A stretch of 24,000 nt of DNA from a bacterium (GCA_043778525.1 JAYWGA010000020.1:7317-31316), one strand, 5' to 3'. Shown: positions 2,574 through 24,000, numbered from the stretch's first letter. The notes: generated by a model not told the origin, from the letters alone. A program made the numbers and translations.

Positions 2574-2585
2574 TATATAAAGTAT

Positions 2586-5838: not shown

Positions 5839-5920
5839 TGCCCAGGAAAGGACTTGAACCTTCACATCTTGCGATACTAGTTCCTAAGACTAGTGCGTCT
5901 ACCAATTTCGCCACCTGGGC
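5839..5920 (-). tRNA. tRNA-Leu (anticodon UAG), class II with long variable arm
   Basis: The reverse complement reads GCCCAGG-TG-GCG-AAATTGGTAGA-CGC-A-CTAGT-CTTAGGA-ACTAG-TATCGCAAGATGT-GAAGG-TTCAAGT-CCTTT-CCTGGGC-A. This is a perfect cloverleaf with anticodon TAG and no encoded CCA. Confidence 0.9.
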
Positions 5921-9071: not shown

Positions 9072-9077
9072 TTGTAC

Positions 9078-9086
9078 ATTCTATCA
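9078..9086 (-). promoter_or_regulatory. Extended -10 promoter (TGATAGAAT on minus strand) for infB, leaderless-type spacing
   Basis: The minus strand reads TGATAGAAT-GTACAA-ATG, with the hexamer ending 6 nt before the infB start codon. Confidence 0.45.
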
Positions 9087-9101
9087 TAAAAATACTTTTT
9101 T

Positions 9102-9110
9102 TGCTATATT
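9102..9110 (+). promoter_or_regulatory. Extended -10 promoter (TGCTATATT), leaderless-type spacing
   Basis: It ends 7 nt before ATG 9118, the start that is followed by a signal-peptide-like sequence. It is divergent from the infB promoter. Confidence 0.4.
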
Positions 9111-9117
9111 GTATATA

Positions 9118-11358: not shown

Positions 11359-11389
11359 TTTTTTGCAAGTTTACAATGTATTAAAATAA

Positions 11390-12412
11390 ATGGGACAGCA
11401 AATAAATATAGTAATAAGTGGTAGGGTGCAGGGGGTAATGTTTCGTCAGTCTGTAAAAAGTTTTGCTGAAGCAAATAATATTTGCGGGTTTGCCGAAAAC
11501 ACGCAAGGCGGTGATGTAAAAATAATAGCTCAAGGAGAGCCAGATGATTTATTGGCGCTTTTTTCTTATTGCCATACTGGTCCACTACTAGCCAAAGTAA
11601 AAAGTATAAAAGGAGAGTGGTCAGAGATAGGGGAAAAGTTTATAGATTTTAAAGTAAAAAGAAATGGAAAAAATATACTAGAAGATCAAATAAATGCCTT
11701 TACAAATCTAGGTAAAGAAATCGTAAATATAAAACAAATACCAAAACACATAGTCATAATACCAGACGGCAGTAGGCGCTGGGCCAAAGAAAAAAAACTG
11801 CCAGAGGTATTTGGGCATAGAGAAGGTGCCAAAAAAATAAAAGAATTTGTAAACTTTTTAGTAAATACCGAAACGGAGCATTTGACCATTTGGGGATTTT
11901 CTACCGAAAACTGGAGTAGGCAGCAAAAAGAAGTGGATAGCTTGATGAAAATATTTTTAAATTCAATAAAAGAAATGGCCTATGAATGTGAAAAGAATAA
12001 AATAAAATTTAGGCATCTAGGCAGAAAGACAGAGCTTTCGCAGGAGGTATTAGACGCTCTTAAAAAACTAGAGACAGACACAGAAAACTATGGTCCAAAA
12101 AATATAAATCTAGCCCTAGATTATGGAGGTCGTGATGAAATAATAAGAGCCATACAAAAAATAAAAAATATAGAGCAAATAGGAAAAATGAACGAAGAAA
12201 ACTTTGGCAAATTGCTCGACACTAAAGATGTGCCAGACCCAGATCTGATAATACGTACTAGTGGCGAAAAGAGGCTCTCGGGCATATTGCCTTGGCAGTC
12301 TACCTATGCCGAGCTTTACTTTACAGACAAGCATTTTCCAGATTTTAATAGAGCTCAGCTGAGTTTGGCGGTAGAGGAATACTCAAGTCGCAAAAGGCGT
12401 CTGGGTAAATAG
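11390..12412 (+). CDS. uppS: Fusion protein: acylphosphatase domain (N) + di-trans,poly-cis-undecaprenyl-diphosphate synthase (C)
   Basis: aa 1-90 carry an acylphosphatase signature (ISGRVQGVMFRQSV...GFAENTQGGDVKIIAQGE). aa about 115-340 carry UppS motifs (IIPDGSRRWA, GHREGA, TIWGFSTENWSR, RTSGEKRLSGILPWQSTYAELYF). Confidence 0.9.
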   Translation: MGQQINIVISGRVQGVMFRQSVKSFAEANNICGFAENTQGGDVKIIAQGEPDDLLALFSYCHTGPLLAKVKSIKGEWSEIGEKFIDFKVKRNGKNILEDQINAFTNLGKEIVNIKQIPKHIVIIPDGSRRWAKEKKLPEVFGHREGAKKIKEFVNFLVNTETEHLTIWGFSTENWSRQQKEVDSLMKIFLNSIKEMAYECEKNKIKFRHLGRKTELSQEVLDALKKLETDTENYGPKNINLALDYGGRDEIIRAIQKIKNIEQIGKMNEENFGKLLDTKDVPDPDLIIRTSGEKRLSGILPWQSTYAELYFTDKHFPDFNRAQLSLAVEEYSSRKRRLGK

Positions 12413-12428
12413 ATACTAGAGTTCGGTA

Positions 12429-12437
12429 TGATATAAT
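12429..12437 (+). promoter_or_regulatory. Extended -10 promoter (TGATATAAT), leaderless-type spacing to ATG 12444
   Basis: The hexamer abuts ATG 12438 and ends 6 nt before the in-frame ATG 12444, which favours 12444 as a leaderless start. Confidence 0.4.
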
Positions 12438-12443
12438 ATGGCT

Positions 12444-14153
12444 ATGAAAATCTTTTATAGAATACTTGTGAGAGTTGCAGTATATTTAGTAGTATTTTCT
12501 ATTTTCTTTTTTATTTTTGATAAGTATTTTTATGAGCCAAATAAAAGCGTAAACTACGGCGCCTATGAAGCTATAAAAACTACTCAAGAATATGTAAAGA
12601 CTAAAGTTTTTAACAAAGGGGAAATGTCGCGACTGTATGCTGTCTCTGCGAGTGTGTATAGCGAGAGTTTAGATGCTGGAGCTAGCAAAGAATGCGCTAA
12701 ATATTTGTCTGACAATATTACTTTTAATCTTTATGATGAAAAATATGTGCTGACTGAAAATAAAAAAAATTGTGACTTGAAAATTTATAATAAATGGCTA
12801 GATTGGCATAGAAGTGATAAAGAATTTTTTAATAAAAGCTATACAAAGCCAAATATAAAAGATGTACCCAGCGCCACCTGGGAAAGTAAGGAAGAGCCAC
12901 TAATGCCAAATGCGGGTAATTGGAAAAGATTTGCAGAGCCATCGAGTCCTGATTTTGATAAGTATTATAAACTACCGCCACCACCATCAGTAGAGCAGGC
13001 TAAAATAGATGCAAAAGAAGTGCAAATGCAAATGCAAAAGGCGAGTGCCCAGGATAAAATAGATGCAGAGTACTACAATGCGCGCCAAGGTACGCAAGAG
13101 TACGTAGGTCTTTGGACTGACTTTTTAAATAAAGAAGTAAAAACCTTAAATAGAAAAGTATCTGAAAAAGAGTATGCTAAAATGCAAATGGCTTTGACAC
13201 AGTCTATGGCTGATAGCTTTTTGGAGACTTGGAAGTATAAATTTAAATACTGGACTGCGCGGCCTAGTATGGTCTTGCCTGAGCTAGAAAAAGATTTGCT
13301 TTTACCAAATCCAAACTTCCCTAGCTATCCATCGGGCCACTCTACGGTAGGTGCTACTGCTGCGACTGTGATGAAATATTTTATACCAGAGCGCGCTAGT
13401 GTGTGGGAGTATTATGCAGAGAGATCGCGTACAGGTAGGGTAGATTCTGGAGTGCATTTTGTAGTCGATACAGTAGAAGGGGGAATACTTGGCACAAAGA
13501 TAGCAGGCGAATATTTAAAGATAGCAAATGCAAAAGGCTTAGAGAGACTTGCTCTATTTGAACAAAAAAAGGACGGCAAAATATCTCTGTATGAGTACGG
13601 CTTTGAGGATGCAAAAGGCGATAGCAAAAAAATATATCTGACACTAGACGAAAGCGAAGCTAAAAATATAAAATATAGAAATGGTCTAAAAAAGCTACAT
13701 ATTAATGACTTTTGGAGTCCAGACAGATGCCTCGGCATACTTTCACAGTCTGGCCCCGAGTATTTGGTATTTTCAGATTCATTTATAGATGATCCTGTTA
13801 AAAAGAATTATATAAACTTTATTTATATTTATAATATATATAAAAATAAACTAGAGAGCTTTCGTACCGATATACCAGCCGAAAAGTTATTCTTTGTAGA
13901 TAATAATTTTTATTTTTTAGCAAAAGATAAAGCAATATATAAAATAGATATAAATAATATTAAAATAATTTTAGAAAAAGATTTATCATTGGAGTATTTG
14001 GAAAATGCAAAAAATACACAAGAGAATAAAAAGTTTTTACTAGACCTTAAACCAGAAAGTGGCTCGGCTATAAAAGTGTTTTACCAAAACAAAAATATTT
14101 TAGAATTATTTAAGGAGGAAGGGTTTAAATATTTTATTATCGGTATAATATAG
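12444..14153 (+). CDS. Membrane-anchored PAP2 / vanadium-haloperoxidase-like phosphatase-superfamily protein with extra N- and C-terminal regions
   Basis: N-terminal TM segment. PAP2 motifs in order: KFKYWTARP (Kx6RP), PSYPSGHS (PSGH), GRVDSGVHFVVD (Rx5Hx3D). About 200 aa of unrecognised C-terminal sequence. The alternative start is 12438. Confidence 0.7.
   Translation: MKIFYRILVRVAVYLVVFSIFFFIFDKYFYEPNKSVNYGAYEAIKTTQEYVKTKVFNKGEMSRLYAVSASVYSESLDAGASKECAKYLSDNITFNLYDEKYVLTENKKNCDLKIYNKWLDWHRSDKEFFNKSYTKPNIKDVPSATWESKEEPLMPNAGNWKRFAEPSSPDFDKYYKLPPPPSVEQAKIDAKEVQMQMQKASAQDKIDAEYYNARQGTQEYVGLWTDFLNKEVKTLNRKVSEKEYAKMQMALTQSMADSFLETWKYKFKYWTARPSMVLPELEKDLLLPNPNFPSYPSGHSTVGATAATVMKYFIPERASVWEYYAERSRTGRVDSGVHFVVDTVEGGILGTKIAGEYLKIANAKGLERLALFEQKKDGKISLYEYGFEDAKGDSKKIYLTLDESEAKNIKYRNGLKKLHINDFWSPDRCLGILSQSGPEYLVFSDSFIDDPVKKNYINFIYIYNIYKNKLESFRTDIPAEKLFFVDNNFYFLAKDKAIYKIDINNIKIILEKDLSLEYLENAKNTQENKKFLLDLKPESGSAIKVFYQNKNILELFKEEGFKYFIIGII
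14141..14149 (+). promoter_or_regulatory. -10 promoter element (cggTATAAT), leaderless-type spacing
   Basis: TATAAT ends 7 nt before ATG 14157. Confidence 0.35.
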
Positions 14154-14156
14154 TAT

Positions 14157-14570
14157 ATGCTAAAGTTTTATTTTAAAGTGCGCAAAAGGGTGACTAGTGT
14201 TAGGAAGCGGACACGAAAGAAAAATAGTATAAAAAGCCAAAAAGACTATATAGAGCATAAGGAAATGGCGAGAGTGCTAGTCCTGGAGAGGCTAGAGTAT
14301 TTTAATCAATTTTACAATTTAAAATGGGGCAGGGTATCTATTAAAAATGTAAAGACGCGCTGGGGCAGCTGCTCTTCTAAAGGCAATCTCAACTTTAGCT
14401 ACAAAATAATAAAGCTAGCGCCGCATCTAGCTGACTATATTATAGTGCATGAGCTATGCCATCTGAAGGAGATGAATCACGCGCAAGCTTTTTGGGACTT
14501 GGTAGCACAGCAAATGCCAGAGTACAAGGCATTAAAAAATGAGCTGGCTAAAATTAAACTATATAACTAA
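14157..14570 (+). CDS. YgjP-like (DUF45 / M48-SprT-like) zinc metallopeptidase, short form
   Basis: Matches the DUF45 signature ending in the HExxH metal site: RWGSCSSKGNLNFSYKIIKLAPHLADYIIVHELCHLKEMNHAQAFWDLV. 137 aa. Confidence 0.8.
   Translation: MLKFYFKVRKRVTSVRKRTRKKNSIKSQKDYIEHKEMARVLVLERLEYFNQFYNLKWGRVSIKNVKTRWGSCSSKGNLNFSYKIIKLAPHLADYIIVHELCHLKEMNHAQAFWDLVAQQMPEYKALKNELAKIKLYN
14529..14556 (+). repeat. Left copy of a perfect 28-bp direct repeat (gcattaaaaaatgagctggctaaaatta), inside the 3' end of the ygjP-like gene
   Basis: Identical letter-for-letter to 15072-15099. It encodes ALKNELAKI in the ygjP-like reading frame. Confidence 0.95.
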
Positions 14571-14579
14571 GCCACAATA

Positions 14580-14588
14580 TGATAAAAT
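14580..14588 (+). promoter_or_regulatory. Extended -10 promoter (TGATAAAAT) for the MazF-like gene, leaderless-type spacing
   Basis: It ends 6 nt before ATG 14595 and lies inside the repeat-bounded insertion. Confidence 0.4.
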
Positions 14589-14594
14589 GTAGAT

Positions 14595-14978
14595 ATGAAA
14601 GATTTTAATGCATGGAGCGAGGTCAAAAAATCACAAGACGATAAAATTAGAAATGTATTTTGCAAAGAGCGTGATATTTGGTGGTCTACACTTGGACTAA
14701 ATATTGGCGATGAGGAAGATGGTAAGGGTGAGTTATTTGAAAGACCGATCATTGTAATTAAAAAATTTAATAATAATATATTTTGGGGATGTGCTTTGTC
14801 TACTAAAATAAAAGATAATAATAAGTATTATGTAAAAGTTAAAACTAAAGAAGGTGTGCAGTCTGTGATAATTTCTCAGCTGCGCTTATACGATACAAAA
14901 AGACTTGGAGAAAAAATAGATGTAGCAAGTAAAGAAGATTTTGAAAAAATAAAAACAGCAATTAAAAATTTGCTGTAA
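14595..14978 (+). CDS. PemK/MazF-family toxin-like protein (orphan; no adjacent antitoxin ORF seen)
   Basis: RDIWWSTLGLNIGDEEDGKGELFERPIIVIKKF matches the MazF/PemK core 'GeIwwv.lG.n.G.Eq.G..RPvlVi'. Later SQLRLYDTKRLGEKI matches 'sQirtid..Rl..kiG'. 127 aa. Confidence 0.7.
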   Translation: MKDFNAWSEVKKSQDDKIRNVFCKERDIWWSTLGLNIGDEEDGKGELFERPIIVIKKFNNNIFWGCALSTKIKDNNKYYVKVKTKEGVQSVIISQLRLYDTKRLGEKIDVASKEDFEKIKTAIKNLL

Positions 14979-14992
14979 TTATTGTTATTACC

Positions 14993-15010
14993 CGAGAGAT
15001 TTCTCTCTCG
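14993..15010. other. Perfect 7-bp stem / 4-nt loop hairpin (CGAGAGA-TTTC-TCTCTCG) downstream of the MazF-like gene
   Basis: Seen directly in the sequence. There is no U-tract on either strand, so a role as an intrinsic terminator is uncertain. Confidence 0.3.
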
Positions 15011-15071
15011 AAAGCCCGGAGGCATTTGTATCTATAATATTATACGAAAACAATAAATAAGTCAAGGTAAT

Positions 15072-15099
15072 GCATTAAAAAATGAGCTGGCTAAAATTA
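15072..15099 (+). repeat. Right copy of the 28-bp direct repeat; overlaps the stop codon of the minus-strand deacetylase gene
   Basis: Identical to 14529-14556. Read in the + frame it continues as ALKNELAKIILK-stop (TAG at 15108-15110), which looks like the ancestral 3' end of the ygjP-like gene. Confidence 0.95.
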
Positions 15100-15933
15100 T
15101 TTTAAAGTAGATTTTTTAGCTGGAAAAAGCTCGTAAAATAATCCCATATTACTATTTATGTTGTACCTATTTAATTTAAAGATATCTTTTTGCGTATGAT
15201 AGTTACCATAGCTATCCGACACTGCCGCTATGTAGCCAGCCTCTTCTACTATTTTCGTGACGGTAGCATTTGTGAGGCCATAAGGGTATGAAAAAATATT
15301 TACAGGCTTGCCTATTTTGTCTTCTAGTATTTTTTTACTTCCAGCTATTTCTCTTTCTAGTATTTTTGTGTCTGTTATTTTATTTAGTTTTGGATGAGAG
15401 ACGGTATGCGCTCCTATGGTCATATTATTTTTATCCATATCTATTATATCTTTCCAGCTCATGGCTATGGGGTAGTTTTTATTTATGGCTTTAGTATAAA
15501 TAAAAAAGTTTGCTCGCAAATTATATTTTTTAAGTATAGGGTAGGCATTTGTGTACTGATTTCTATAGCCATCATCAAAAGTGATAATGACTGGATTTTC
15601 GGGAAGTGGCGTATTTTTATTTAAATTATTTACTAGATCATCAAAACTTATAATACTATAATCATTTTCTTTTAGATACTTCATCTGGGTTTCAAAAATA
15701 TTTATAGGCGTGATAAATTCTTTTGCAAAAATATTATCTTTTTTATTAAAATCTCGCACTTGATGATAGGTGAGTATCACCACTTTTGTACTAGTACTTT
15801 TTGTAAAGTTTTGCTCAAGAGTTTCTAGCTTTACCTCAGATATTTCAAAAGGTGTCTCACCAGGGTAGGCAAAGGTGGCTTGTGATAAACAGATAACAAT
15901 AAAAAACGAAATTACTTTAATAATTTTTTTCAT
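15097..15933 (-). CDS. Polysaccharide deacetylase family protein (NodB/PgdA-like), secreted
   Basis: Signal peptide, then NodB motifs ITFDDGYRNQYTNAYPILKKYNLRANFFI and IGAHTVSHPKL. Confidence 0.9.
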   Translation of the reverse strand: MKKIIKVISFFIVICLSQATFAYPGETPFEISEVKLETLEQNFTKSTSTKVVILTYHQVRDFNKKDNIFAKEFITPINIFETQMKYLKENDYSIISFDDLVNNLNKNTPLPENPVIITFDDGYRNQYTNAYPILKKYNLRANFFIYTKAINKNYPIAMSWKDIIDMDKNNMTIGAHTVSHPKLNKITDTKILEREIAGSKKILEDKIGKPVNIFSYPYGLTNATVTKIVEEAGYIAAVSDSYGNYHTQKDIFKLNRYNINSNMGLFYELFPAKKSTLK

Positions 15934-15939
15934 TGTTTA

Positions 15940-15948
15940 ATTATATCA
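15940..15948 (-). promoter_or_regulatory. Extended -10 promoter (TGATATAAT on minus strand) for the deacetylase gene, leaderless-type spacing
   Basis: The minus strand reads TGATATAAT-TAAACA-ATG. Confidence 0.45.
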
Positions 15949-15994
15949 CGCAAACGTAGGCCTTTCCATTTCAAATTGCGTTTTCTGCTCCATA

Positions 15995-16753
15995 TTATAA
16001 TTTTTTATATTTACCATTTCCTAAAAATTCTATATAATTTTTATCTCTCAGTAATTGTAATTGCTGCCTAAGTTTATCCTTTATGTGTTTGTTTTTAGTA
16101 AATATTTCCTCAAGTCTTGCTTTGTGCTTGTAAATATCTTGAAGTGTAAAATAGTTTTTACACTTGTCTACGATTTTTAAAACTTCAAAAGCCCATCCAC
16201 GTTTTTCTAAATTATCTATTTTAAAATTTTTAGTCTTATTCCAGTTTTCTTTTATAATCTTTTTATCTACGATTTCTCCATTTTTAATTAAAAAGATTTT
16301 TCCAATATCAGGTATTTCAGAATAAAGTATATTGCAACCAATCCAACCAGCCCTTTTAGCCGTATTTGAAAGTGGTTTTCTTTTTTCTATAATATTTTCA
16401 GTAAAAAAGTATTTGGGTATTGCTATCACATCTCTTACTATAAAATTTGCATTATAATTTAGAAAAATGAGATTGGGGTTATTGTTAGAATTAACTCTAT
16501 TTATCATTGTACTGTATGCACCGTCCACAATTTTTTTTGATACCATTCCTTTCTTTGATTTGAGTTCAAATTCTTCTTTACAATTTGAACAGTAAAAATC
16601 TGCGACAGGTGAATTGTTTTCAAATTGAGTTAAATTATTTAGACAGCTAACACAGTATCCGTTTTCTAGATACCAAGGCTCAGTCATCACTCTAGCTTTT
16701 TGTGAAGAGCTTTTGTAATCTGTACTTGTATATTTTTCTAAAGATAATGTCAT
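15995..16753 (-). CDS. dpnC: DpnI-type methylation-dependent type IIM restriction endonuclease (G-m6A-TC specific family)
   Basis: Collinear similarity to my recollection of S. pneumoniae DpnI over the whole length. Shared segments: YKSSSQKARVMTE, YC.SC.N.L..FENN.PVADFYC..C.EEFELKSKKG, DGAY.TM..RV...NNPN, RKPL..TA.RAGWIGCNI, and the C-terminal wHTH end NKHIKDKLRQQLQLLRDKNYIEFLGNGKYKKL. Confidence 0.9.
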   Translation of the reverse strand: MTLSLEKYTSTDYKSSSQKARVMTEPWYLENGYCVSCLNNLTQFENNSPVADFYCSNCKEEFELKSKKGMVSKKIVDGAYSTMINRVNSNNNPNLIFLNYNANFIVRDVIAIPKYFFTENIIEKRKPLSNTAKRAGWIGCNILYSEIPDIGKIFLIKNGEIVDKKIIKENWNKTKNFKIDNLEKRGWAFEVLKIVDKCKNYFTLQDIYKHKARLEEIFTKNKHIKDKLRQQLQLLRDKNYIEFLGNGKYKKL

Positions 16754-16794
16754 TTAAAATTTGTTAGCTTATATTTTTCTCCTATAAATAAATT

Positions 16795-17628
16795 TTATTC
16801 ATAGTCATTGATATTAATTGTATTTAGTTTTTGAAGGCCATATACAGGATCTTCTAAAAATTTTTTGATAAAATACTTACCTTTATTCGTCACTGATATT
16901 TTGTCTTCTTTTTGATCTATTTCTATAATCCCATTACTATGGCAATAGGCTAATATGTCTTTTGGAATTTCGAATTGTACTTCGCCACTAAAATTATTTT
17001 TTTCTTTTACTTTAGCATTTTTTTCATAGTAGGATTCTATAATTTTATCAAACTTATATGAAAAATTAAGCACTTTAAACTTTTGATAATCACGTATCCA
17101 TTGTATCGTGGGATCTGTTTCTTTTATAATCTTCTCTAATTGAGACCTATTTATTTCTGCTGTTTTTTTCTTAACCTCTTCACTTAAGATGGCGTTTTCA
17201 GATTTTATAACCTCAACCTCTTTTTTATTCCGTGCTATCTCAGCGTCTTTATGTTTCGCATATAAAAAATCGTATAAAGATTTTTCATCGAAGCTATTAA
17301 ATTTCTTAAATACTATTGAATAGATGATAGCGCTTATAAAAACTGGAATTAAATATATTGATACATAAATATTTATTTTTTCTAAAAAAAGATAAGTATT
17401 ATTTTTTATAAAATCTGGAAGAGCTGTATACTTACTCCAATTAGAATAAACTAGCTTGTCTGCTATGTCTGCTCTTCCAAAAAATATGTATAGAATAATA
17501 CCTTTATTCCAGAGTATAAAAGATAAAATATAAACTCTAAAAACAGAAGACGTAGGAGGGCTATTTAAAAAATCATACATTAAATCTGCCCAGCTTTTAT
17601 TCTTATCCACAATTTGAGATTCACTCAT
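16795..17628 (-). CDS. Hypothetical membrane protein: 2 predicted TM helices + coiled coil + C-terminal winged-helix-like domain
   Basis: 277 aa. Hydrophobic segments VFRVYILSFILWNKGIILYIFF and IYVSIYLIPVFISAIIYSIVF, then a charged heptad-like stretch (KDAEIARNKKEVEVIKSENAILSEEVKKKTAEINRSQLEKIIKE). The C-terminus ILAYCHSNGIIEIDQKEDKISVTNKGKYFIKKFL resembles a wHTH. It lies 41 nt upstream of dpnC on the same strand. No family recognised. Confidence 0.6.
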   Translation of the reverse strand: MSESQIVDKNKSWADLMYDFLNSPPTSSVFRVYILSFILWNKGIILYIFFGRADIADKLVYSNWSKYTALPDFIKNNTYLFLEKINIYVSIYLIPVFISAIIYSIVFKKFNSFDEKSLYDFLYAKHKDAEIARNKKEVEVIKSENAILSEEVKKKTAEINRSQLEKIIKETDPTIQWIRDYQKFKVLNFSYKFDKIIESYYEKNAKVKEKNNFSGEVQFEIPKDILAYCHSNGIIEIDQKEDKISVTNKGKYFIKKFLEDPVYGLQKLNTININDYE

Positions 17629-17835
17629 ATTTTTATTTAAATTTTTTGCTACGATGTCTGGTCTAGTACGAGTGACGTACGTGTGTGTAAGGGTTTTCGA
17701 GCGGATTATATCTATTAGCCTGACCCCTCTAGGTCGTTCTTTTACAAGTGGAAAAATTGTATTTGCTGTGATTTTGCTGTGAAAATCGATGTTATTTTAT
17801 AAAATAAAAACCCATAAGTATTGTATACTTATGGT

Positions 17836-18207
17836 ATGTCTAATATTAAAACTCTTAAACCTTTTCTACCAGGTCATGATCCCAGAAGAAACATCAAAGG
17901 AAGGATATCAAAACCTGTGAGTGAGACAGGTATCTTTAAAAGGCTTCTTCTCGAACATATGCAAAAGAAAGTAATAGTCGGCGGTGAGGAGAGAAGAATC
18001 ATGGATATTATAGTAGAGAGAATTGTAAATGATGCCGCAAAAGGTAAAGCTAGCGCAATCAAACTTATACTAGATAGAACTGAGGGGAAGAGCCCAACCC
18101 AGAAAGCACTGTTTGCAAAAATGGATGGGGAAGAAAGAGGTGTTGGTGGATATGAAATACCAGAGGAGGATATGGCACGTTTGCGCAAGATTTTTGGAGA
18201 TACGTAA
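17836..18207 (+). CDS. Phage-type small protein, DUF5681-like (small-terminase-associated family look-alike)
   Basis: LKPFLPGHDPRRNIKGR resembles the 'F.pGqSGNP.GRPkG' N-terminal motif. IVNDAAKGKASAIKLILDRTEGKS resembles 'A..Gd..A.kl.ldR.eGKp'. G+C is visibly higher than in flanking genes. The start is set at ATG 17836, 6 nt after the TATACT -10 at 17824-17829. The track used TTG 17821. Confidence 0.5.
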   Translation: MSNIKTLKPFLPGHDPRRNIKGRISKPVSETGIFKRLLLEHMQKKVIVGGEERRIMDIIVERIVNDAAKGKASAIKLILDRTEGKSPTQKALFAKMDGEERGVGGYEIPEEDMARLRKIFGDT

Positions 18208-18297
18208 GAATGTATGAAGTCTTAGAAGATCGACCTTCTTCCCAAGACTTACACACTTTAACTTACTTAAAAATATTTGTGTAGTCCGAGTTATCCA

Positions 18298-18609
18298 CTA
18301 TTTCATTCCGAGATCATTCATGTCTTTATAGAGCTCCTCCCTCTCTTTTTCACTCAAACGCTCTATTTCTAATTTGTTAATTCTTTCTAAACCTTCGTCT
18401 TTTGATAGGCCTATTTTTTCTGAAAGAACAAAAAATCTAAGATCATTTAAGATTTGAAAGACATGGATAAATTTCTTATGTCTTTCAATTGTGTGATTAG
18501 TGCCAAGCCACAGAAGCATAAGAATAAAAACTGCTATATTAGTTTTATCTAAACCAAATATTAAAAATGCGAAAAATATTATAAGAAGCCAATTGTATAT
18601 TGTTTTCAT
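18298..18609 (-). CDS. Small hypothetical 2-TM membrane protein with charged C-terminal helix
   Basis: 103 aa. Hydrophobic segments WLLIIFFAFLIFGL and IAVFILMLLWLG, then an E/K-rich tail. It is preceded by a long structured leader. No homology recognised. Confidence 0.55.
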   Translation of the reverse strand: MKTIYNWLLIIFFAFLIFGLDKTNIAVFILMLLWLGTNHTIERHKKFIHVFQILNDLRFFVLSEKIGLSKDEGLERINKLEIERLSEKEREELYKDMNDLGMK

Positions 18610-18810
18610 AAACTTTGGACGGTTTTATTATGAAGGATCTTGCTAGGTAGCAAAAAGCTCCTAGCCAGTTCCGGCATATCCCGTGAAATATACCCATACC
18701 CGTTTCCAGGTATGACCGTCCAAAGTAGACTCTGACTAGGAGTTTTTTACTTTGGACGGATTTGGCGACCATATCCTATTGCTAGGGGTTAGGTCTCTAT
18801 ATTAAGTTGT
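18610..18810 (-). promoter_or_regulatory. ~200-nt structured 5' leader / candidate cis-regulatory RNA with alternative helices
   Basis: Three copies of a 12-mer: 18612-18623 and 18748-18759 are direct copies, and 18715-18727 is inverted. Internal hairpins lie at 18642-18665 (GCTAGG...CCTAGC), 18695-18714 (CATACC...GGTATG) and 18775-18786 (CCTA-GCAA-TAGG on the minus strand). The region is G+C-rich relative to its surroundings. The proximal 12-mer ends 2 nt from the ATG. Confidence 0.5.
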
Positions 18811-18816
18811 AAATTT

Positions 18817-18825
18817 ATTATACCA
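18817..18825 (-). promoter_or_regulatory. Extended -10 promoter (TGGTATAAT on minus strand) driving the structured leader
   Basis: A perfect TGnTATAAT on the minus strand about 205 nt upstream of ATG 18609. This contrasts with the 6-14 nt spacing seen at other genes in this window. Confidence 0.45.
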
Positions 18826-18882
18826 TTTTACTTGGTATTTTTATACTGTAGCTTACATTCAAACTATTGTGTAGTCATAAAG

Positions 18883-21800
18883 CTAATCACTTAAGAAGTG
18901 GCATAATTGAAGATATCTTTGAAAAAGTTTTTTACACATATCTTTATCATTTATAAGCTCATATGCTTTCATCATATTCACAAAACCTCCGTGTCCAGTA
19001 TTTTTATATAGATGTAGTTCCATCTCTTTTTTCATCCTAAGATCACCTAGAGCAACCGAAACTCCTAAGTAAAAATATGGCGAATTAGAAGTAAACCAAT
19101 CAGTGTGTGGAAAGGTATATCGAGTCAGAGTTTCTGTAAATGGCGCAATATTACCAAGGTACTTAAAGGTTCTGTTCAGGAGTAGCTCCCAAGAATCTCT
19201 ATTTGAAATCACAATTCCATTTTTATAATCTTCTAATTTTTTATAAAATCTTTTGATTTTTGCCTTGTTGGTCAATCCAATCAAAATCTTATGTAAATCT
19301 TTGTTAGATATTTTATTTGTATCATCACTATTATTTTTCTCATCAAACTCAACATTCACTGTTTTATTATATTTATTACAAAGCTCAATGTAAGAAACTT
19401 TTAAATCCTTATAGTCTATATCTCTAAGGAAATAGGTTATGCCTTCTGTTTTCATCTCTTCAACTAAGTTGTAGGCAATTTCAAATGCAGCCTTCTTGTC
19501 CTCTTCGGAATATATTGGTGATTTTGACACCTCTACATAAACTTTAATCTTATGCTCATAACTGTCAGAGTTTGGTTTGTTATCGTGATTATAATCTTGC
19601 CTGTACTCGAGAATACCCTCTTTAATCTCATCAAGATCAGTACCGATTCTCACCTTGCCCAATAAGATGTATGTATTAGCCTGATTGTTATAATTTCTGT
19701 AACCCTTATCCTTGATTAAAGTCTTTCTTAATTCATTTGCAAATGAAATATCAAATTTTGAGGCTAACTCAATAACATTGTAAGGTCCTTTCCATGTCAC
19801 AGCCCCATCTGTAAAACTTGAAACATGGAGAGTGAGTTCAAAAATTTCAGATAAGTACTTCTTTATATTTTCAGTAGTCTCACAGTTATTTCTTATGAGA
19901 ATTTCTAAGGAGTCCACTAGCTGATGACTGACCAAGGAATCTTTTCTCCATCCATGCCTTAGAACACTTTCTTTTAAACCTTTTACAAAGTATTCTCTGG
20001 CTTTTTGTTGGTCAATTTTTGAATAAAATAATGATAGAGAAAAACAATCATTAACTAAGGATTGATAATCATCAAATTTTTTGAGCTGGACTTCAATTTT
20101 ATTTAAATCAGTCTGATTAATTAACTTATCAAACAGTTCTTTGTTTATAGATACTAATTTGTAGTAAAAACTCCAAGGAATTATGCCTGATTCTGGTCCT
20201 AGTAACTTTTCCTTTAGAATAAATAGGTCTTCAACCTTTATAGTGGTTACAAGCGACTTACTAAAGATCTGCGCCCAAAGGAAAGAGATATCTGTTTTTA
20301 GATAGCGATCAAGTCTGTCATCTCTCTCTTTTATATAAGAAAAATAATTTCTTAACACGAGCCCAATTGTAGATTTAGTTTTAATAATATTTATATATGA
20401 GTCAAAAAGTGCTGAGTATAGTTCAAGCTCATCTAAGTATTTAAAATTATCATTCGGGTCATTATTTATTTGGCTAAATTTATTTTCATTTAAAGCATAT
20501 GAAATTATTGAAAACTTATGTGGAATGTTATACATATGCCAATCCACCTTCCTTTCGTTTCTCGTTTTTACCAAAAGTTGTTTTAGTAAAGTAGTCTCTT
20601 CATCATTAAGACTCAATCCAAAGTATGTCTTGTAAAATGAGATGTGGTAGTTTTCTTCCCCGAAGGTTACGTTTTCTAGAATTAAACGTTTCTTGATCAA
20701 ATTTTGTATCTTTCTATTTACTAAAAGTGTATTAATTCCATCGAATGACAAGAGCACTCCTAGTAAGGCGTTAAACTCAAAAGTGTCTAACTTGTTTAAG
20801 TTACTAATTAAAAACTTATCATCAACTGATAAAATTGCATAATAAAAAGAGTTTATTAATTTCTCCTTATTGTTTTCTCTTGAAAAACTTTTATCATTCT
20901 CATTCTCGTAAAATTTATAATTTACGCGAATTTGATCTTCCAAAACCTTTGAGGCACTACGTTTTTTTATAACAATCAATATATAAATAAAGTCTGACCA
21001 ATGTTGCCAAAACGGATCTGTAACATGGGTATTTTCACTTTTGTTTTTGAAAAAATCCTTCTCGTGGAATATATCTTGAATTTTAGATATGTGAGTAATT
21101 ATTTTCTGCGAAAACTCTTTTTTACCGCTCTTCCAAAAAATAACAGCATTCTCTATCATTGGTCCGATAGAGCTCCAAGCTCCAGATAACTTGTCATTTA
21201 TTTTATAGTCATTTTTATCCTTATCCCATGCATCAAAAGTTTTATTTAAATAGTCTAAATCCAAAAAAAACATCTTTTTCATTTTAAAACTATCACTTTC
21301 CAACAATTCTTCCATCACCCCAGGCTCTTGATTTGCAAGTGCGGGAATAAATTCTGAAGAATTATGATAATAAGCATCATCAACTCCGTATCCAGTATGA
21401 TTGCCAAGATATACATCGAGTAAATTTATATCAAGTAATCCCACAATATCATTATTTTTTTCATAACATTTTCTTAAATACTTTAAGAAGTATTGTTCGA
21501 AAAAGTCACGATTAGAGAGAACATCTGTACGACGTAGTATAAATGGATCTTTTTCATATTCTAATTTTAATCTCTGTATAAAGAAAAACTCTTGATACCT
21601 TCTGTGTCGATAGATATAGTCGAGTCTCGTTTCATTATCTAAATAACTATTTTCAAAAAATAGATCAGTGAGATAGTTTAATATCTCATTTGTCGAGTTG
21701 TAATCCGCCCTAGGAAAGATGCTAGCAATAATGTCTTGAAGTTCTGATTTCGGTAATCTAAACTGAAATTTCTGATAGGAGCGAAAGGATATCTCTTGAT

Positions 21801-23148
21801 TCAGAGTAAGTATTTTTTCTGGTTTCTCATCCAAAATATTTAAAGTCTCAATATTTTTCTTATGATCAGGGGAATACAGAAGAATCTGCACATTCTCTTC
21901 AATTAAATCAGCAACTGTACTTTTCTCATTTAGTTCTTCTATGGTATCCCACAGTAATTTTATAAATAAAATATCCACTATCTCAGAGATTAGTAATTTA
22001 TTATTTTTCTTAAGTTTGCTTAGGTATTTATCTTTTATCTTGTTGTTTTTACTCTTAAAGTAAAGATCGATATAAGTATTATCTAAGCTTGAAAAGCAAA
22101 AATGCTCAGCCTTAGGTAAGTAAACTGCAGCTCTTGTTTTATTAGAATTACCAGATCGACAAGATATAATAATTTTTTTGGTTGTACTTAATTGTTCTAG
22201 GTTTCTTATGTAAAAAAGTGTCTGATCTGCCTTTTCTGGACTCAACTCGTCGAGACCATCAAATATATAAATGAAATCAAGTTTCTTGTTTCTAACCGAG
22301 AAATCATTTTGCCTATCCCTTATAAGACCCTCCAGATTTTCATTCACGCAATCTTTAAGATTAATAATCATGGGGATTGCTTTGTTCTGTGCCCACACTG
22401 CCAACATCTCTTTTTTGTTTTTCTTATTTAATCCTGAAAAATCTCTAAAAAGAGCGTGTGAAAAAATACTCTTACCAGAACCTGGATGTCCTAGCAGTAA
22501 AAATACCTTTTGTTTTCTTGAAAGAATGCTTTTAACTGGATCCACCATTATTTTGTTGTTACTAGACAGTGGTAACTTAAGATATCCTTCTGACTGAATA
22601 AATGTTTGTATGCTTAAATTAGAGTCATTTTTAATAAAAGAGTAATTATCAGCTTCTCCAAAGTAGATCTGTCCCAAGTCCAAATTACCTGGTTGATTTA
22701 ATGAAATTGAGAAATTTCCAGGATCAAACCAAGATATTTCAATCTTTAATTCTTTAGCAGAGTCAATTAATACCTGCTCTTCAGATGAAACTGTAGTACT
22801 TTTTTTACTACTTTCACTTCGTAATTTATTCACATAAAAAATTACATTATTAAGTTTTGGGTGCTTAGCCTTAGCTTTTCTTAAACCATCCTCCAAGCTT
22901 TTATAATTAATATTTGATTCAAAAAATTTTGACTGAAAACCGATAACTCTTTTACCAACAGAAACTGGAGGCTTCTCTATACCTGTTTGATTTCGATAAC
23001 CAGAAATTCCATCTGATATTTTATAAGTTCTACAAAACAGAAAATAACAAAGTTGCTCAAAAGAACCCTCTGGGTCGCCATTTTCTAACCTAAACTTGTC
23101 GAAGTTAACATTTACTATATTTTCAGTCTGTTTTTTAGTTGTAGACAT
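18883..23148 (-). CDS. STAND/NACHT-type NTPase (NLR-like/Avs-like) with N-terminal Mrr-like PD-(D/E)xK nuclease module and ~1000-aa helical C-terminal region
   Basis: N-terminus: FEQLCYFLFCRTY...QTGIEKPPVSVGKRVIGFQSKFF resembles Mrr_cat 'FE.l...ll...G...D.GID.....vQcKr'. Walker A LLLGHPGSGKS (aa 217-227; nt 22468-22491 for GHPGSGKS). NACHT-style Walker B IYIFDGLDEL (aa 293-302). Then IIISCRSG, followed by about 1000 aa of largely helical-looking sequence with no motif recognised. The start codon lies 3 nt after the hsdS stop. Confidence 0.85.
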   Translation of the reverse strand: MSTTKKQTENIVNVNFDKFRLENGDPEGSFEQLCYFLFCRTYKISDGISGYRNQTGIEKPPVSVGKRVIGFQSKFFESNINYKSLEDGLRKAKAKHPKLNNVIFYVNKLRSESSKKSTTVSSEEQVLIDSAKELKIEISWFDPGNFSISLNQPGNLDLGQIYFGEADNYSFIKNDSNLSIQTFIQSEGYLKLPLSSNNKIMVDPVKSILSRKQKVFLLLGHPGSGKSIFSHALFRDFSGLNKKNKKEMLAVWAQNKAIPMIINLKDCVNENLEGLIRDRQNDFSVRNKKLDFIYIFDGLDELSPEKADQTLFYIRNLEQLSTTKKIIISCRSGNSNKTRAAVYLPKAEHFCFSSLDNTYIDLYFKSKNNKIKDKYLSKLKKNNKLLISEIVDILFIKLLWDTIEELNEKSTVADLIEENVQILLYSPDHKKNIETLNILDEKPEKILTLNQEISFRSYQKFQFRLPKSELQDIIASIFPRADYNSTNEILNYLTDLFFENSYLDNETRLDYIYRHRRYQEFFFIQRLKLEYEKDPFILRRTDVLSNRDFFEQYFLKYLRKCYEKNNDIVGLLDINLLDVYLGNHTGYGVDDAYYHNSSEFIPALANQEPGVMEELLESDSFKMKKMFFLDLDYLNKTFDAWDKDKNDYKINDKLSGAWSSIGPMIENAVIFWKSGKKEFSQKIITHISKIQDIFHEKDFFKNKSENTHVTDPFWQHWSDFIYILIVIKKRSASKVLEDQIRVNYKFYENENDKSFSRENNKEKLINSFYYAILSVDDKFLISNLNKLDTFEFNALLGVLLSFDGINTLLVNRKIQNLIKKRLILENVTFGEENYHISFYKTYFGLSLNDEETTLLKQLLVKTRNERKVDWHMYNIPHKFSIISYALNENKFSQINNDPNDNFKYLDELELYSALFDSYINIIKTKSTIGLVLRNYFSYIKERDDRLDRYLKTDISFLWAQIFSKSLVTTIKVEDLFILKEKLLGPESGIIPWSFYYKLVSINKELFDKLINQTDLNKIEVQLKKFDDYQSLVNDCFSLSLFYSKIDQQKAREYFVKGLKESVLRHGWRKDSLVSHQLVDSLEILIRNNCETTENIKKYLSEIFELTLHVSSFTDGAVTWKGPYNVIELASKFDISFANELRKTLIKDKGYRNYNNQANTYILLGKVRIGTDLDEIKEGILEYRQDYNHDNKPNSDSYEHKIKVYVEVSKSPIYSEEDKKAAFEIAYNLVEEMKTEGITYFLRDIDYKDLKVSYIELCNKYNKTVNVEFDEKNNSDDTNKISNKDLHKILIGLTNKAKIKRFYKKLEDYKNGIVISNRDSWELLLNRTFKYLGNIAPFTETLTRYTFPHTDWFTSNSPYFYLGVSVALGDLRMKKEMELHLYKNTGHGGFVNMMKAYELINDKDMCKKLFQRYLQLCHFLSD

Positions 23149-23151
23149 AAA

Positions 23152-24000
23152 TTATGCAAAAGATTTTGCCATTACAGCATTAAATAACTCATCGACCATT
23201 TGAGTTGATTGAAGCTGCTTCTCTTTTTGAACTTCAATCCCCTTAACTAATTCCGCAAATTTATTTTGTAATTCAATTGGAGACAAAGAGATAATAAGAT
23301 TTTTTATAATAGTCGAATTCCATCCTTCCATGATTGCACCCTTAGAAACATTTCGAGTCTGTTTTCTAACCTCATTGTCAAAAAGTAACGATGCCCACAA
23401 ATAAACAGGGTTCAATCTTGTCTTGTTTGTGGTAATTACGCACAAGTGCTTAGTACTCATGCATTTTGGTAAATCATCTGGAGCAACCACAACTCTACCA
23501 ACAGTTCCCATTATCGTTACCAGTACATCACTAGGGTGAACTTGAAATTTTATAAATTTCTTGAATTTTTCTTCTGGGAGACATCTTTTATATGTCCATC
23601 TAAATTTATTCTTTACTACATTATCTATACCTAAAACAGGGACACCAACCTCTGTAAATTCATGGTGATGCAACTGGCTACCGAAAGGGCCTGTTCTTAT
23701 TGAGCTTTTATCAATGACTAAATTAACAATCTTATCTTTAGGATATGCTTCTTTGCTAAAAAAGTTTTCAAATAAATCAGTTACAAGATCTTCCATTTTC
23801 TTATTTGCCTCAGCTCTCTTATTTTTCAAATCCTCAGCTTCTTTAATAAGAGAAACGATTCGTTTCTGCTCATTCAGATCTGGATTACCTTTTGTATCTG
23901 TTGGAATAGGTACAGTGATTTTTTGTACATACACTTTTGAAATATGTTTAAGTCCTGCACCTTTAAATCCTGTATCTAATATGTGCTTGTTACTTAGTAA
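23152..24000 (-). CDS. hsdS: Type I restriction-modification specificity subunit HsdS, C-terminal part (5' end beyond the window)
   Basis: Central conserved region I.VPIP...EQKRIVSLIKEAEDLKNKR followed by a target-recognition domain (GPFGS...VPVLGIDNV...) and a C-terminal conserved helix (PIELQNKFAELVKGIEVQKEKQ). The frame stays open upstream of the track's GTG through position 24000 (LLSNKHILDTGFKGAGLKHISK...). Confidence 0.9.
   Translation of the reverse strand, partial: LLSNKHILDTGFKGAGLKHISKVYVQKITVPIPTDTKGNPDLNEQKRIVSLIKEAEDLKNKRAEANKKMEDLVTDLFENFFSKEAYPKDKIVNLVIDKSSIRTGPFGSQLHHHEFTEVGVPVLGIDNVVKNKFRWTYKRCLPEEKFKKFIKFQVHPSDVLVTIMGTVGRVVVAPDDLPKCMSTKHLCVITTNKTRLNPVYLWASLLFDNEVRKQTRNVSKGAIMEGWNSTIIKNLIISLSPIELQNKFAELVKGIEVQKEKQLQSTQMVDELFNAVMAKSFA

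Follow-up and report, generated by a model that had tools for sequence, protein, structure and literature searches.

CPR bacteria account for a large share of bacterial diversity and have tiny genomes in which CRISPR is rare, so their resistance to phages is an open question. Hotspots of defence genes of the P2/P4 type were reportedly described by Rousset et al. in 2022; P2 and P4 use tyrosine integrases. In prophage and satellite hotspots, several unrelated defence systems lie within a few kilobases beside an integrase, and the content of the slot differs between related elements. PrrC/EcoprrI and RloC are nucleases of abortive infection that reside in type I restriction-modification (R-M) loci; as suicide-type effectors, they are encoded right behind hsdS and co-transcribed with the R-M system. 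Avs4 (AVAST type 4; EcAvs4, PDB 8DGF), a single-gene system that spreads horizontally, is composed of an N-terminal Mrr-like nuclease, a STAND NTPase, and an extended C-terminal sensor for the phage portal protein. The occurrence of defence islands in hotspots is attributed to Makarova et al. (2011, J Bacteriol 193:6039, as cited in PMC12259885). The operational definition of a defence island in PMC12259885 is at least five defence genes of at least three families, separated by gaps of at most ten genes; according to that study, individual CPR genomes have few but densely packed defence systems, and groundwater genomes seldom contain defence islands.

Here, we describe a locus at the right end of a 24,000-nucleotide stretch of DNA (the window) from an ultra-small Patescibacteria (CPR) bacterium. 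It is a genuine anti-phage gene cluster, ordinary in kind. Judging from sequence comparison, the cluster is probably the cargo of a stripped-down phage-derived element that carries a serine recombinase and LOOT RNA and would provide layered defence.

Extent and gene content of the variable region

The genome of the host is approximately 0.6-0.8 Mb in size, and the assembly is 77% complete. Between ychF and cysS, a variable region specific to the strain spans about 23 kb, namely window positions 11359-24000 and about 10.7 kb of the next contig, with synteny to congeners broken on both sides. The contig ends 2 bp beyond the window, and the expectation that the island extends past position 24000 was borne out by three assemblies of the same strain (L046, L047, and L049), which join it at 100% identity to a contig (C51) containing the remainder of hsdS followed by hsdM, hsdR, and a serine recombinase gene. 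The open reading frames listed in the original prediction are all present at the positions given, and the family assignments stand. The prediction counted seven clustered elements; the clustering is real, whereas eight elements had been named, and a polysaccharide deacetylase gene at 15097-15933 had been overlooked among otherwise correct positions. The region contains the following features (E-values follow the names of profiles):

11390-12412, + strand: acylphosphatase-UppS fusion (Pfam Prenyltransf 2e-69, and Acylphosphatase)
12438-14153, + strand: 571-aa membrane protein with a PAP2 phosphatase domain (Pfam PAP2 4.9e-7)
14157-14570, + strand: short YgjP-like (DUF45/WLM-type) metallopeptidase (Pfam PF01863 3e-35)
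14526-14556, no strand: left copy of a 31-nt direct repeat, 30/31 identical to the right copy at 15069-15099
14595-14978, + strand: MazF/PemK-family toxin (Pfam PF02452 4.3e-11; phrog_9567 9e-17)
14976-15068, - strand: convergent small-RNA gene (promoter and hairpins, conserved module)
15097-15933, - strand: secreted polysaccharide deacetylase, PgaB/IcaB-like (Pfam PF01522 6e-30)
15995-16753, - strand: DpnI-type (type IIM) methyl-directed restriction enzyme (Pfam and PADLOC)
16795-17628, - strand: 277-aa protein, no family
17836-18207, + strand: 123-aa DUF5681-like protein (Pfam DUF5681, PF18932, 1.9e-5, below cut-off)
18298-18609, - strand: 103-aa membrane protein in the variable slot downstream of LOOT, no family
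18610-18797, - strand: LOOT RNA with a 3' extension (Rfam RF03000 at 18673-18795)
18883-23148, - strand: 1421-aa STAND NTPase with an N-terminal Mrr-like nuclease, Avs-like (Avs4 models match the N-terminal part)
23152-24000, - strand: HsdS, C-terminal 282 of 376 residues (PADLOC Specificity_I 8.9e-56)

The variable region begins directly after ychF, and genes of the cell envelope (deacetylase, UppS fusion, and PAP2) share it with the defence genes. The acylphosphatase-UppS fusion, which is the first gene of the region, has no match in four congeners, and the UppS family is present in only 7 of 25 relatives. The PAP2 protein is an envelope protein, not a defence component, and its only matches, 33-36% identical, are found in two of four congeners, elsewhere in the genome. 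The deacetylase matches PgaB-type NCBIfam models under their cut-offs and has a 40% identical homologue within the LOOT element of a relative (L145). The YgjP-like match is restricted to profile positions 95-205 of 207; its HExxH motif reads HELCH, and the third-position GC content of the gene is in the 98th percentile, differing from that of its neighbours.

None of the genes at 11390-24000 is syntenic in three congeners, and none of the island genes is next to ychF in these congeners or in three more distant relatives. In this genome, the counterparts of the genes that flank ychF and cysS in congeners are located on other contigs. Among 120 other genomes of the order, the STAND gene was found in none and the DpnI gene in one or two. 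The cluster is thus variable among close relatives, as expected of a defence island, and the scenario in which these are syntenic core genes fails. Three units supported by hidden Markov models are located in the window: the DpnI-type nuclease, type I hsdS, and the STAND NTPase, the Mrr nuclease head of which is Avs4-like. Together with hsdM and hsdR, they amount to five defence genes identified by PADLOC or Pfam, within 16 genes including that of MazF, in agreement with the number and spacing in the definition of a defence island. R-M (type I and IIM) and the Avs-like STAND are clear families; a third would be reached only by counting the incomplete MazEF or an RloC-like gene at 3601-5754, 8 kb upstream, which is 13 genes from DpnI and 9 from MazF.

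The STAND NTPase and restriction enzymes

The type I R-M system is complete in assemblies L046 and L047, with HsdR of 769, HsdM of 492, and HsdS of 376 residues; hsdR is split in L049, and the gap in hsdS of L050 is a run of N. HsdR contains ResIII, HSDR_N_2, and EcoEI_R_C domains, and HsdM was identified by PADLOC (1.2e-148). The STAND gene starts 3 nt after hsdS, and a four-gene operon, hsdR-hsdM-hsdS-STAND, is complete across the contig join, followed by the large serine recombinase.

Residues 12-236 of the STAND protein match positions 2-231 of the Avs4 profile of PADLOC (PDLC02169, 8.3e-35) and residues 2-248 of the Avs4 structure 8DGF (2e-34). The match to the NCBIfam Avs4 model (NF041815, 1.3e-37) comprises only about the first 235 residues, at 128.6 bits against a cut-off of 1500. 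In 26 homologues, E58 and K74 of the conserved nuclease motif E58...Q72-x-K74 are invariant, as are G220, P222, G223, G225, and K226 of the Walker A motif (GxPGxGKS) and the Walker B motif D297-E301 (DGLDE). The Pfam NACHT model matches the protein at 0.003, under its cut-off, and is a precomputed annotation of many homologues. The C-terminal part had been considered to lack a family for most of its length; however, the protein is conserved over its entire length, with more than 150 full-length homologues from many phyla. The C-terminal 900 residues, which have no match to Avs4, constitute a conserved family of their own, and a low-confidence single-sequence model (pLDDT 41) predicts them to be all-helical.

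The type IIM assignment of the DpnI-type enzyme is upheld by both of its domains, which are near full length: the catalytic domain PF06044 (8.7e-73, positions 1-181 of 183) and the C-terminal winged-helix domain PF17726 (DpnI_C, 1.3e-27, positions 1-70 of 70). The PADLOC model mREase_II matches the full length of the protein (8.7e-93), and the GC content of the gene is in the 6th percentile. A D12-class Dam methylase (PF02086) has no match in the 77% complete genome, and therefore the host, with its 1308 GATC sites, would tolerate the enzyme. Matches to PF01555 in the genome are sub-threshold and contain internal stops.

A MazF cassette with a convergent small-RNA gene

The mazF gene was identified by Pfam and PHROGs and has no PADLOC match. 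It has the toxin domain of type II MazEF modules and no adjacent co-transcribed gene of a protein antitoxin; the gap between ygjP and mazF is 24 nt. Four paralogues are located elsewhere in the genome: one is a 78-aa fragment, and three are full-length and solitary, likewise with no upstream open reading frame. Among 61 relatives, 22 have members of the family, and a single genome may contain as many as seven copies. The MazF cassette is flanked on both sides by the 31-nt direct repeats, and in the right copy the reading frame of ygjP is carried on as far as a stop codon. Therefore, a 543-bp cassette entered the 3' end of ygjP with duplication of the target.

The convergent small-RNA gene has a promoter (TTGACT-17-TATAAT) and an ACAAAUG motif at the 5' end, together with two hairpins, a small one and a terminator whose end coincides with the stop codon of mazF. 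Of 32 MazF matches examined, 24 have the mazF-small RNA module, the stems of which show compensatory changes; the small RNA has no Rfam match. It is a candidate RNA antitoxin. MazF, seemingly an orphan, is thus accompanied by a conserved convergent gene.

LOOT RNA as a probable leader of a variable gene

The LOOT motif reportedly originates from Weinberg et al. 2017; the main text of that study (PMC5737381) does not mention it. In the locus described here, LOOT aligns to model positions 1-121 of 121 with 73.1 bits, well above the gathering score (46.4). The original prediction recognised a leader of the small membrane protein gene, but not that it is a catalogued RNA (LOOT, RF03000). The feature at 18610-18797, the 3' extension of which reaches the start codon of the 103-aa gene, has a folding z-score of -6.7. 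The 11 nt preceding the ATG are a copy of the 5' arm of the LOOT central stem, a relationship that holds with at least seven different sequences across loci. The 5' arm, the 3' arm, and the copy preceding the ATG thus covary three ways. LOOT begins about 10 nt past a -10 box, here and in relatives. The -10 box, the variable gene downstream, and the covarying copy of the arm at the start codon point to a cis-acting leader.

As predicted, searches of Pfam, NCBIfam, PADLOC, and PHROGs assigned the 103-aa membrane protein to no family, and the GC content of its gene is in the 14th percentile, low like that of dpnI. In 17 of 20 loci of relatives, an open reading frame starts shortly downstream of LOOT, at a distance of -20 to 138 nt (48-83 nt in 13 of them). 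The family of this reading frame varies by locus, and most of the encoded proteins, judged by eye, are membrane or secreted proteins. The 103-aa protein is possibly a superinfection-exclusion factor.

Probable cargo of a decayed element

Of 61 genomes searched, 17 contain LOOT, namely this genome and 16 of 60 relatives. The backbone of the region appears to be a reduced copy of a phage-derived element whose family is widespread in the order. Elements of relatives are arranged as a large serine integrase, a variable cargo slot, LOOT, and one or two small variable membrane-protein genes, after which terminase and ParB-methylase genes follow in convergent orientation. Genes conserved near LOOT encode a large terminase (phrog_38, 2e-74), a small-terminase-like helix-turn-helix (HTH) protein, and a ParB-methylase (phrog_498, 4e-90), maintained in 9-12 of the relatives' loci. 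In the locus described here, the integrase is intact (441 aa, phrog_95, 1e-64), and the DUF5681-like gene occupies the position of the small-terminase-like HTH gene, with no sequence match of its product to that cluster. The weak likeness to DUF5681 stands, but the score is below the Pfam threshold (25.6 versus 27.5 bits). As LOOT of relatives resides beside orthologous integrases and terminases, with recurrent R-M cargo, we interpret the island as the cargo of a decayed element. The genes had initially been listed with no organising principle, which the serine recombinase-LOOT element, with R-M and STAND in its cargo slot, would provide.

It is possible, though clearly less probable, that the LOOT element is a dedicated carrier of defence cargo in CPR bacteria, with LOOT as a riboswitch-like leader and STAND as a possible guard of the R-M enzyme. 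A signal would then choose between formation of the central stem and masking, by the 3' arm, of the region where the cargo gene behind LOOT starts, and the STAND nuclease would fire upon inhibition of the R-M enzyme, as PrrC does. The guard appears to be the less likely half of this reading: the neighbours of STAND homologues include type III R-M and AbiE as well as type I R-M, which makes a specific relation to one R-M enzyme unlikely.

Alternatively, unrelated accessory genes could have become neighbours by chance at a rearrangement hotspot, with the recombinase and LOOT as bystanders. The composition of the region, which the original prediction proposed to profile, is a mosaic with no single foreign block, in which the YgjP and DUF5681-like genes are not GC-poor. 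It points to several separate acquisitions rather than one element, and thus counts against the cargo interpretation; the MazF cassette was inserted separately and has a duplication of its own. Synteny with congeners is broken on both the ychF and cysS sides, which indicates rearrangement rather than a clean insertion, so that a simple insertion is not demonstrable, and searches for att sites and ends of the element found none. However, a serine recombinase is present in 18 of 21 LOOT loci, mostly in the same order and orientation, and 11 of these recombinases are 53-62% identical to the one described here. Type I R-M matches occur within 10 kb of LOOT in five other LOOT loci. This is too regular for bystanders, and we consider the chance neighbourhood unlikely.

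We regard it as similarly improbable that the genes at 16795-17628 and 18298-18609 encode new defence components working with their neighbours, as had been proposed from guilt by association. Both are located between the DpnI and STAND genes, both are GC-poor like dpnI (the 277-aa gene in the 5th percentile), and the latter is in the LOOT-controlled cargo slot, which in phages would often hold exclusion genes. In contrast, neither gene accompanies STAND homologues in 38 loci. The 277-aa protein has no match in Pfam, NCBIfam, PHROGs, or the PDB, in agreement with the claim that it has no recognisable family, and its one PADLOC match is weak (LmuC, E 0.0018). Its family comprises at least 161 clusters, and the two homologues examined are encoded among housekeeping and signalling genes (FecR, cyclase, methyltransferases, CTP synthase, and BacA) rather than defence genes; guilt by association therefore does not hold for this protein. 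The winged-helix call was not confirmed by the low-confidence model (pLDDT 46); together with the alignment, this model suggests hydrophobic helices at the N terminus, then a long helix, and a small domain at the C terminus that is conserved.

It is less likely still that the region is an intact prophage or integrative element that remains mobile, since the whole integrase gene, full-length LOOT, and open frames of all the defence genes contrast with the lack of homologues of the large terminase, small-terminase-like HTH protein, and ParB-methylase in the window and anywhere in the 77% complete genome.

Proposed mechanism and significance

Within the interpretation as cargo of a decayed element, the type I enzyme would methylate self DNA and cut unmodified incoming DNA, and the stand-alone DpnI-type enzyme would cut incoming DNA with methylated GATC. 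The putatively helical C-terminal part of STAND may bind a phage protein, upon which the protein would oligomerise through its NTPase and release the Mrr-type nuclease, resulting in abortive infection. It is also possible that the MazF RNase cassette, curbed by the convergent small RNA, adds a further abortive layer. LOOT would act as a 5' leader: its central stem has a 3' arm that could pair either within LOOT or with the copy of the 5' arm preceding the start codon, and this alternative pairing would switch the translation of the 103-aa membrane protein. We infer this layered mechanism from established knowledge of the families.

The island as such holds no new principle. The locus offers a concrete route to layered defence of CPR bacteria, in which a small phage-derived element brings an R-M operon and an Avs-like sensor-nuclease, adjoined by a methyl-directed enzyme and a putatively RNA-controlled MazF. 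It also exemplifies two pairings absent from the literature searched: LOOT with a putative translational leader function, and MazF with a convergent small RNA.

Comparison with known systems

Like the prophage and satellite hotspots, the locus combines unrelated defence systems next to an integrase, in a slot that varies between related elements. It differs from the P2/P4 hotspots in its CPR host of about 0.7 Mb, the presence of LOOT and a large serine integrase, the apparent loss of packaging genes, and the admixture of envelope genes. The STAND protein shares the overall organisation of Avs4; however, only about 235 N-terminal residues match, and the NTPase is nearer to NACHT, with a weak Pfam match. 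Its position right behind hsdS resembles that of PrrC and RloC, whereas the effector is predicted from its sequence to be a STAND-regulated DNase-type enzyme, not an anticodon nuclease. The toxin shares the signature of the PemK/MazF fold family (PF02452) with MazEF and PemIK, but a conserved convergent small-RNA gene abuts its stop codon instead of a MazE-type gene accompanying it. The txpA/RatA genes of Bacillus are type I pairs with a layout like that of mazF and the small RNA. LOOT is assigned to the sRNA class in Rfam, and the match described here is full-length and above the gathering score, yet it appears to be a cis-acting leader.

A defence cluster interspersed with envelope genes

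The region at positions 14157-24000 is a genuine defence cluster of a type I restriction-modification (R-M) system, an Avs-like STAND nuclease, a type IIM enzyme, and a cassette of MazF and a small RNA. The cluster is probably carried by what is left of a serine-integrase/LOOT element, and envelope genes are interspersed in it. The host is a CPR/Patescibacteria bacterium, and its genome is a metagenome-assembled genome (MAG) of 596 kb in 75 contigs, 77% complete. We checked the genes with a list of open reading frames (ORFs) and four HMM libraries, and all those named in the original prediction of a composite defence island were recovered. The prediction gave a total of seven elements while naming eight, and left out the gene of a secreted polysaccharide deacetylase. 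The region contains the following features:

14157-14570, YgjP-like protein with a HELCH motif (3e-35; match limited to the C-terminal half of the profile)
14595-14978, MazF/PemK toxin
14976-15068 (-), convergent small-RNA gene, the local copy of a MazF-linked unit
15097-15933, secreted polysaccharide deacetylase (PF01522, 6e-30)
15995-16753, DpnI and DpnI_C domains (PADLOC mREase_II, 9e-93)
16795-17628, 277-residue ORF without family
Between the two ORFs without family, DUF5681-like ORF (match below the Pfam cut-off)
18298-18609, 103-residue ORF without family
18673-18795 (-), LOOT RNA (Rfam RF03000)
18883-23148, STAND protein of 1421 residues
23152-24000, HsdS, C-terminal 282 residues

The composition of the region is mosaic and deviates only mildly. 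Among the genes of the genome, the GC content of the 277-residue protein gene lies at the 5th percentile, DpnI at the 6th, MazF at the 16th, and STAND at the 19th; YgjP and the DUF5681-like gene lie at the 70th and 76th, respectively.

Both DpnI domains are matched over their full length. The enzyme is tolerable only if host GATC sites, of which the genome has 1308 (observed/expected 0.86), stay unmethylated. This fits the results that no D12-class Dam methylase was detected in the 77% complete genome, and that PF01555 gave only broken, sub-threshold matches there. The target of DpnI would be incoming Dam-methylated DNA. A Dam-type methylase is apparent in at least one relative's LOOT locus, from an N-terminal sequence read by eye.

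The family of the 277-residue protein comprises at least 161 clusters at 50% identity, with no Pfam match among 50 scanned members and no PDB match to the family profile. The structure model of the protein (pLDDT 46) is unusable. The original prediction considered this gene a defence candidate through guilt by association. The proposal is unsupported, since the two homologues that we checked lie in non-defence contexts, and neither this gene nor that of the 103-residue protein accompanies STAND homologues.

A second, small defence patch is located 8 kb upstream of the cluster, at 2562-5754 (+), beside tRNA-Leu (5838-5920). It consists of a RhuM-family gene (4e-104) overlapping an AAA_13/RloC-like ATPase gene, with a GC content of 0.25-0.27. 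The core genes of RbfA, IF2, and YchF stand between the patch and the island.

The region is variable among relatives

In three congeners, whose YchF is 72% identical, ychF is followed by a nitroreductase gene, whose orthologue in the genome studied here is on another contig, C71, with different neighbours. Further C71 genes and then genes of contig C63 follow in the congeners. The window genes from position 11390 on have no counterpart near ychF, either in the three congeners or in three relatives at a greater distance. At the cysS end, the congeners' next gene downstream has its equivalent here on contig C13. Therefore, the 23 kb between ychF and cysS lie at two synteny breakpoints. We also searched 120 other genomes of the order (0.5-1.1 Mb each, completeness mostly above 90%), and found the STAND protein in none of them; DpnI has one good and one degraded match. 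The fused UppS was not found in the four congeners, and the PAP2 protein has only weak matches in relatives. Synteny and presence counts together exclude the possibility that these are syntenic core genes.

The upstream side of ychF is likewise non-syntenic with the congeners. UppS (undecaprenyl-diphosphate synthase) was found in only seven of 25 genomes of the order and in none of the four congeners (G001-G004), a scarcity unexpected in bacteria with retained peptidoglycan genes. The UppS of this genome carries a fused acylphosphatase domain. Taken from its first TTG, the ORF of an S13 D-Ala-D-Ala carboxypeptidase (8998-10197 (+)) shares 74 nt with the 5' end of the IF2 gene (7563-9071 (-)). 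Gene callers take a later start (359 residues), and the gene is GC-poor (10th percentile).

The type I R-M and STAND genes form one operon

The contig (C20) ends 2 bp past the window, inside hsdS. The predicted continuation of the island past 24000 was borne out by three assemblies of the same strain (L046, L047, and L049), in which one side matches C20 and the other matches contig C51, at 99.98-100% identity. Contig C51 carries hsdR, hsdM, and the recombinase gene. The order is CAP-domain protein, 610-residue protein, DUF2130, large serine recombinase (opposite strand), hsdR, hsdM, hsdS, STAND, and the 103-residue protein gene, and it runs on as far as ychF and IF2. HsdR has 769 residues, HsdM 492, and HsdS 376, and the R-M genes on C51 were confirmed by PADLOC and Pfam. 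The stop codon of hsdS is separated from the STAND start codon by 3 nt, and therefore hsdR-hsdM-hsdS-STAND constitutes one operon. An identical STAND protein is encoded on five assembled contigs of the strain other than C20.

Three assemblies end at one shared breakpoint within hsdS, where the sequence is rich in AT and has a single SNP, and where L050 has a run of N. The contig break inside hsdS is an assembly matter. Phase variation of hsdS by the nearby recombinase is ruled out, as hsdS is intact in all three bridging assemblies.

The DUF2130 gene adjoining the recombinase gene (L004, C51:5468-6739 (-)) is intact in L046 (424 residues) and split in L047 (2354-3627; 94 and 259 residues), and hsdR is split in L049 (587 and 183 residues). 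These splits are strain-level frameshifts or assembly errors. A second N6_Mtase-type gene (C13:23965-24714 (-), 623-residue frame, 2.6e-32) may be part of another R-M or type IIG system.

The cluster probably occupies a phage-derived LOOT element

The LOOT RNA scores 73.1 bits over the full Rfam model, against a gathering score of 46.4. Of the 61 genomes searched, 17 have LOOT in one to three copies, namely 16 of 60 relatives and the genome studied here. ORFs within 10 kb on either side of 20 relatives' copies were clustered. A large serine recombinase (phrog_95 integrase, 1e-64) is encoded at 18 of the 21 LOOT loci, and in 11 of these it is 53-62% identical to the recombinase of the cluster. 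The recurrent order begins with the recombinase on the minus strand and continues through 0-9 kb of variable genes to LOOT on the plus strand, behind which come one or two small variable genes and then convergent genes. In relatives, the convergent genes encode a large terminase (phrog_38, 2e-74), a small-terminase-like HTH protein, and a ParB-N6/N4 methylase (phrog_498, 4e-90).

In the genome studied here, the slot between the recombinase and LOOT is filled by the 9.3-kb hsdRMS-STAND operon, and the DUF5681-like gene occupies the position of the small-terminase-like gene. No homologue of the terminase or ParB-methylase was detected anywhere in the genome, nor any remnant in the window at E values up to 10. 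The deacetylase has a 40% identical homologue within one relative's element. Five other loci (L132, L136, L139, L142, and L145) have type I R-M gene matches no more than 10 kb from LOOT, and others carry apparent type II R-M pairs and an OLD-like ATPase, as judged by eye from the ORF sequences. We read the copy studied here as a stripped-down phage-derived element that kept its defence cargo. Insertion of the element at the ychF start codon was considered and rejected, as ychF is within 10 kb of LOOT at none of the 20 relatives' loci, and the region abuts the 3' end of ychF.

One relative's locus (L134; G020:C4:50723-50849 and 55056-55182) has two LOOT copies with identical scores, 4.3 kb apart. 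Both lead into the same genes of a 171-residue protein, a 229-residue protein, and a serine recombinase, so the LOOT-cargo-recombinase module was tandemly duplicated as a whole.

LOOT as a putative leader switch

A -10 box ends approximately 10 nt upstream of LOOT, here and in several relatives. LOOT is closely followed by the start of an ORF at 17 of the 20 relatives' loci, in 13 of them after 48-83 nt. The family of this ORF varies by locus; most products appear by eye to be membrane or secreted proteins, and two are nuclease-like. At nine of 17 loci, the 9-15 nt directly ahead of the ATG are a copy of the 5' arm of the LOOT central stem, and these copies represent at least seven different sequences. 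Between loci, arm and pre-ATG sequences match over at least 9 nt in only eight of 272 pairs, and each of these joins loci with one and the same arm sequence. Two pairings are therefore open to the 3' arm, one inside LOOT and one with the start region. The local leader has a minimum-energy fold (-72.6 kcal/mol, z -6.7) that contains the LOOT structure and leaves the pre-ATG copy unpaired.

The -10 box, the close ORF, and the arm copy before the ATG support the leader control suggested in the original prediction for the 103-residue product. A role of LOOT as a leader switch would go beyond its 'sRNA' label in Rfam; the main text of PMC5737381 contains no description of LOOT. Because the 103-residue protein gene is positioned in the LOOT-controlled slot, we speculate that it has a prophage-type membrane function, such as superinfection exclusion.

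Conservation reaches approximately 35 nt past the 3' end of the Rfam model (18610-18672 (-) and the relatives' loci L131-L150), with an extra conserved hairpin whose loop is GCUUUUUG. In this stretch, the 5'-arm copy sits directly ahead of the downstream start codon.

The MazF cassette and its convergent small RNA

The mazF gene is carried on a 543-bp segment between 31-nt direct repeats (30 of 31 positions identical). The right repeat copy continues the ygjP frame, and therefore the cassette was inserted into the 3' end of ygjP. The genome encodes four more MazF paralogues, three of them full-length and solitary, each with its own promoter. The MazF family is present in 22 of 61 relatives, in up to seven copies per genome and elsewhere among housekeeping genes, and close homologues carry the label 'Patescibacteria group'. 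YgjP as the MazF antitoxin is ruled out, since the three full-length paralogues have no neighbouring YgjP and the cassette itself interrupts ygjP by insertion.

Directly after the mazF stop codon, 24 of the 32 MazF-family matches examined (the window copy; L175, L154-L182) have a convergent unit. Its promoter reads TTGACW, 17 nt, TATAnT. The transcript starts at its 5' end with ACAAAUGG, followed by a tetraloop hairpin and a terminator hairpin. The stem of the tetraloop hairpin shows compensatory changes (GGAC/GUCC, GGCU/AGCC). The small RNA matches no Rfam family and is a candidate RNA antitoxin of MazF.

The STAND protein and its relatives

The Avs4 match is confined to residues 12-236 of the STAND protein (PADLOC, 8e-35; PDB 8DGF, 2e-34), which make up the Mrr-like nuclease head; the NCBIfam Avs4 score is 128.6 bits against a cut-off of 1500. 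The remainder belongs to a family with more than 150 homologues over the full length, each of approximately 1400 residues and 33-50% identical. Their hosts are Wolfe-, Kaiser-, Magasanik- and Saccharibacteria, Aminicenantes, Acidobacteriota, Bacteroidota, Bacillus, Priestia, and one archaeon. Across 26 aligned homologues there is no variation in the Walker A and B motifs or in the nuclease motif (E58, K74), and C-terminal motifs such as RHGWRKD show little or none. The structure model of the C-terminus, computed from single-sequence input, has a pLDDT of 41 and is unusable.

A search with the single STAND sequence found no related loci; these were obtained with the alignment of 26 homologues. 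Among the genes nearest to 31 homologues are those of type I enzymes, type II and III methylases, AbiE, and PDC-S02. The STAND gene lies within 22 nt of a same-strand upstream gene at eight of the 30 loci that have an upstream ORF. Three of these tight upstream genes have an assignment, namely type I hsdR (Saccharibacteria MAG), a type III mod/res-like pair (Wolfebacteria MAG), and AbiEii (Oligoflexia MAG). A specific partnership of STAND with type I R-M is unsupported, as homologues are equally tight behind the type III mod/res-like pair and AbiEii. Because the tight upstream genes are this varied, the STAND gene is a mobile system of one gene that settles downstream of other defence operons.

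The putative LOOT switch and the MazF-linked small RNA are findings separate from the island and more novel than it. A recent survey distinguished at least 90 structurally distinct defence-associated STAND families (10.64898/2026.01.04.697583), and the STAND protein described here is a member of this known defence-associated kind.
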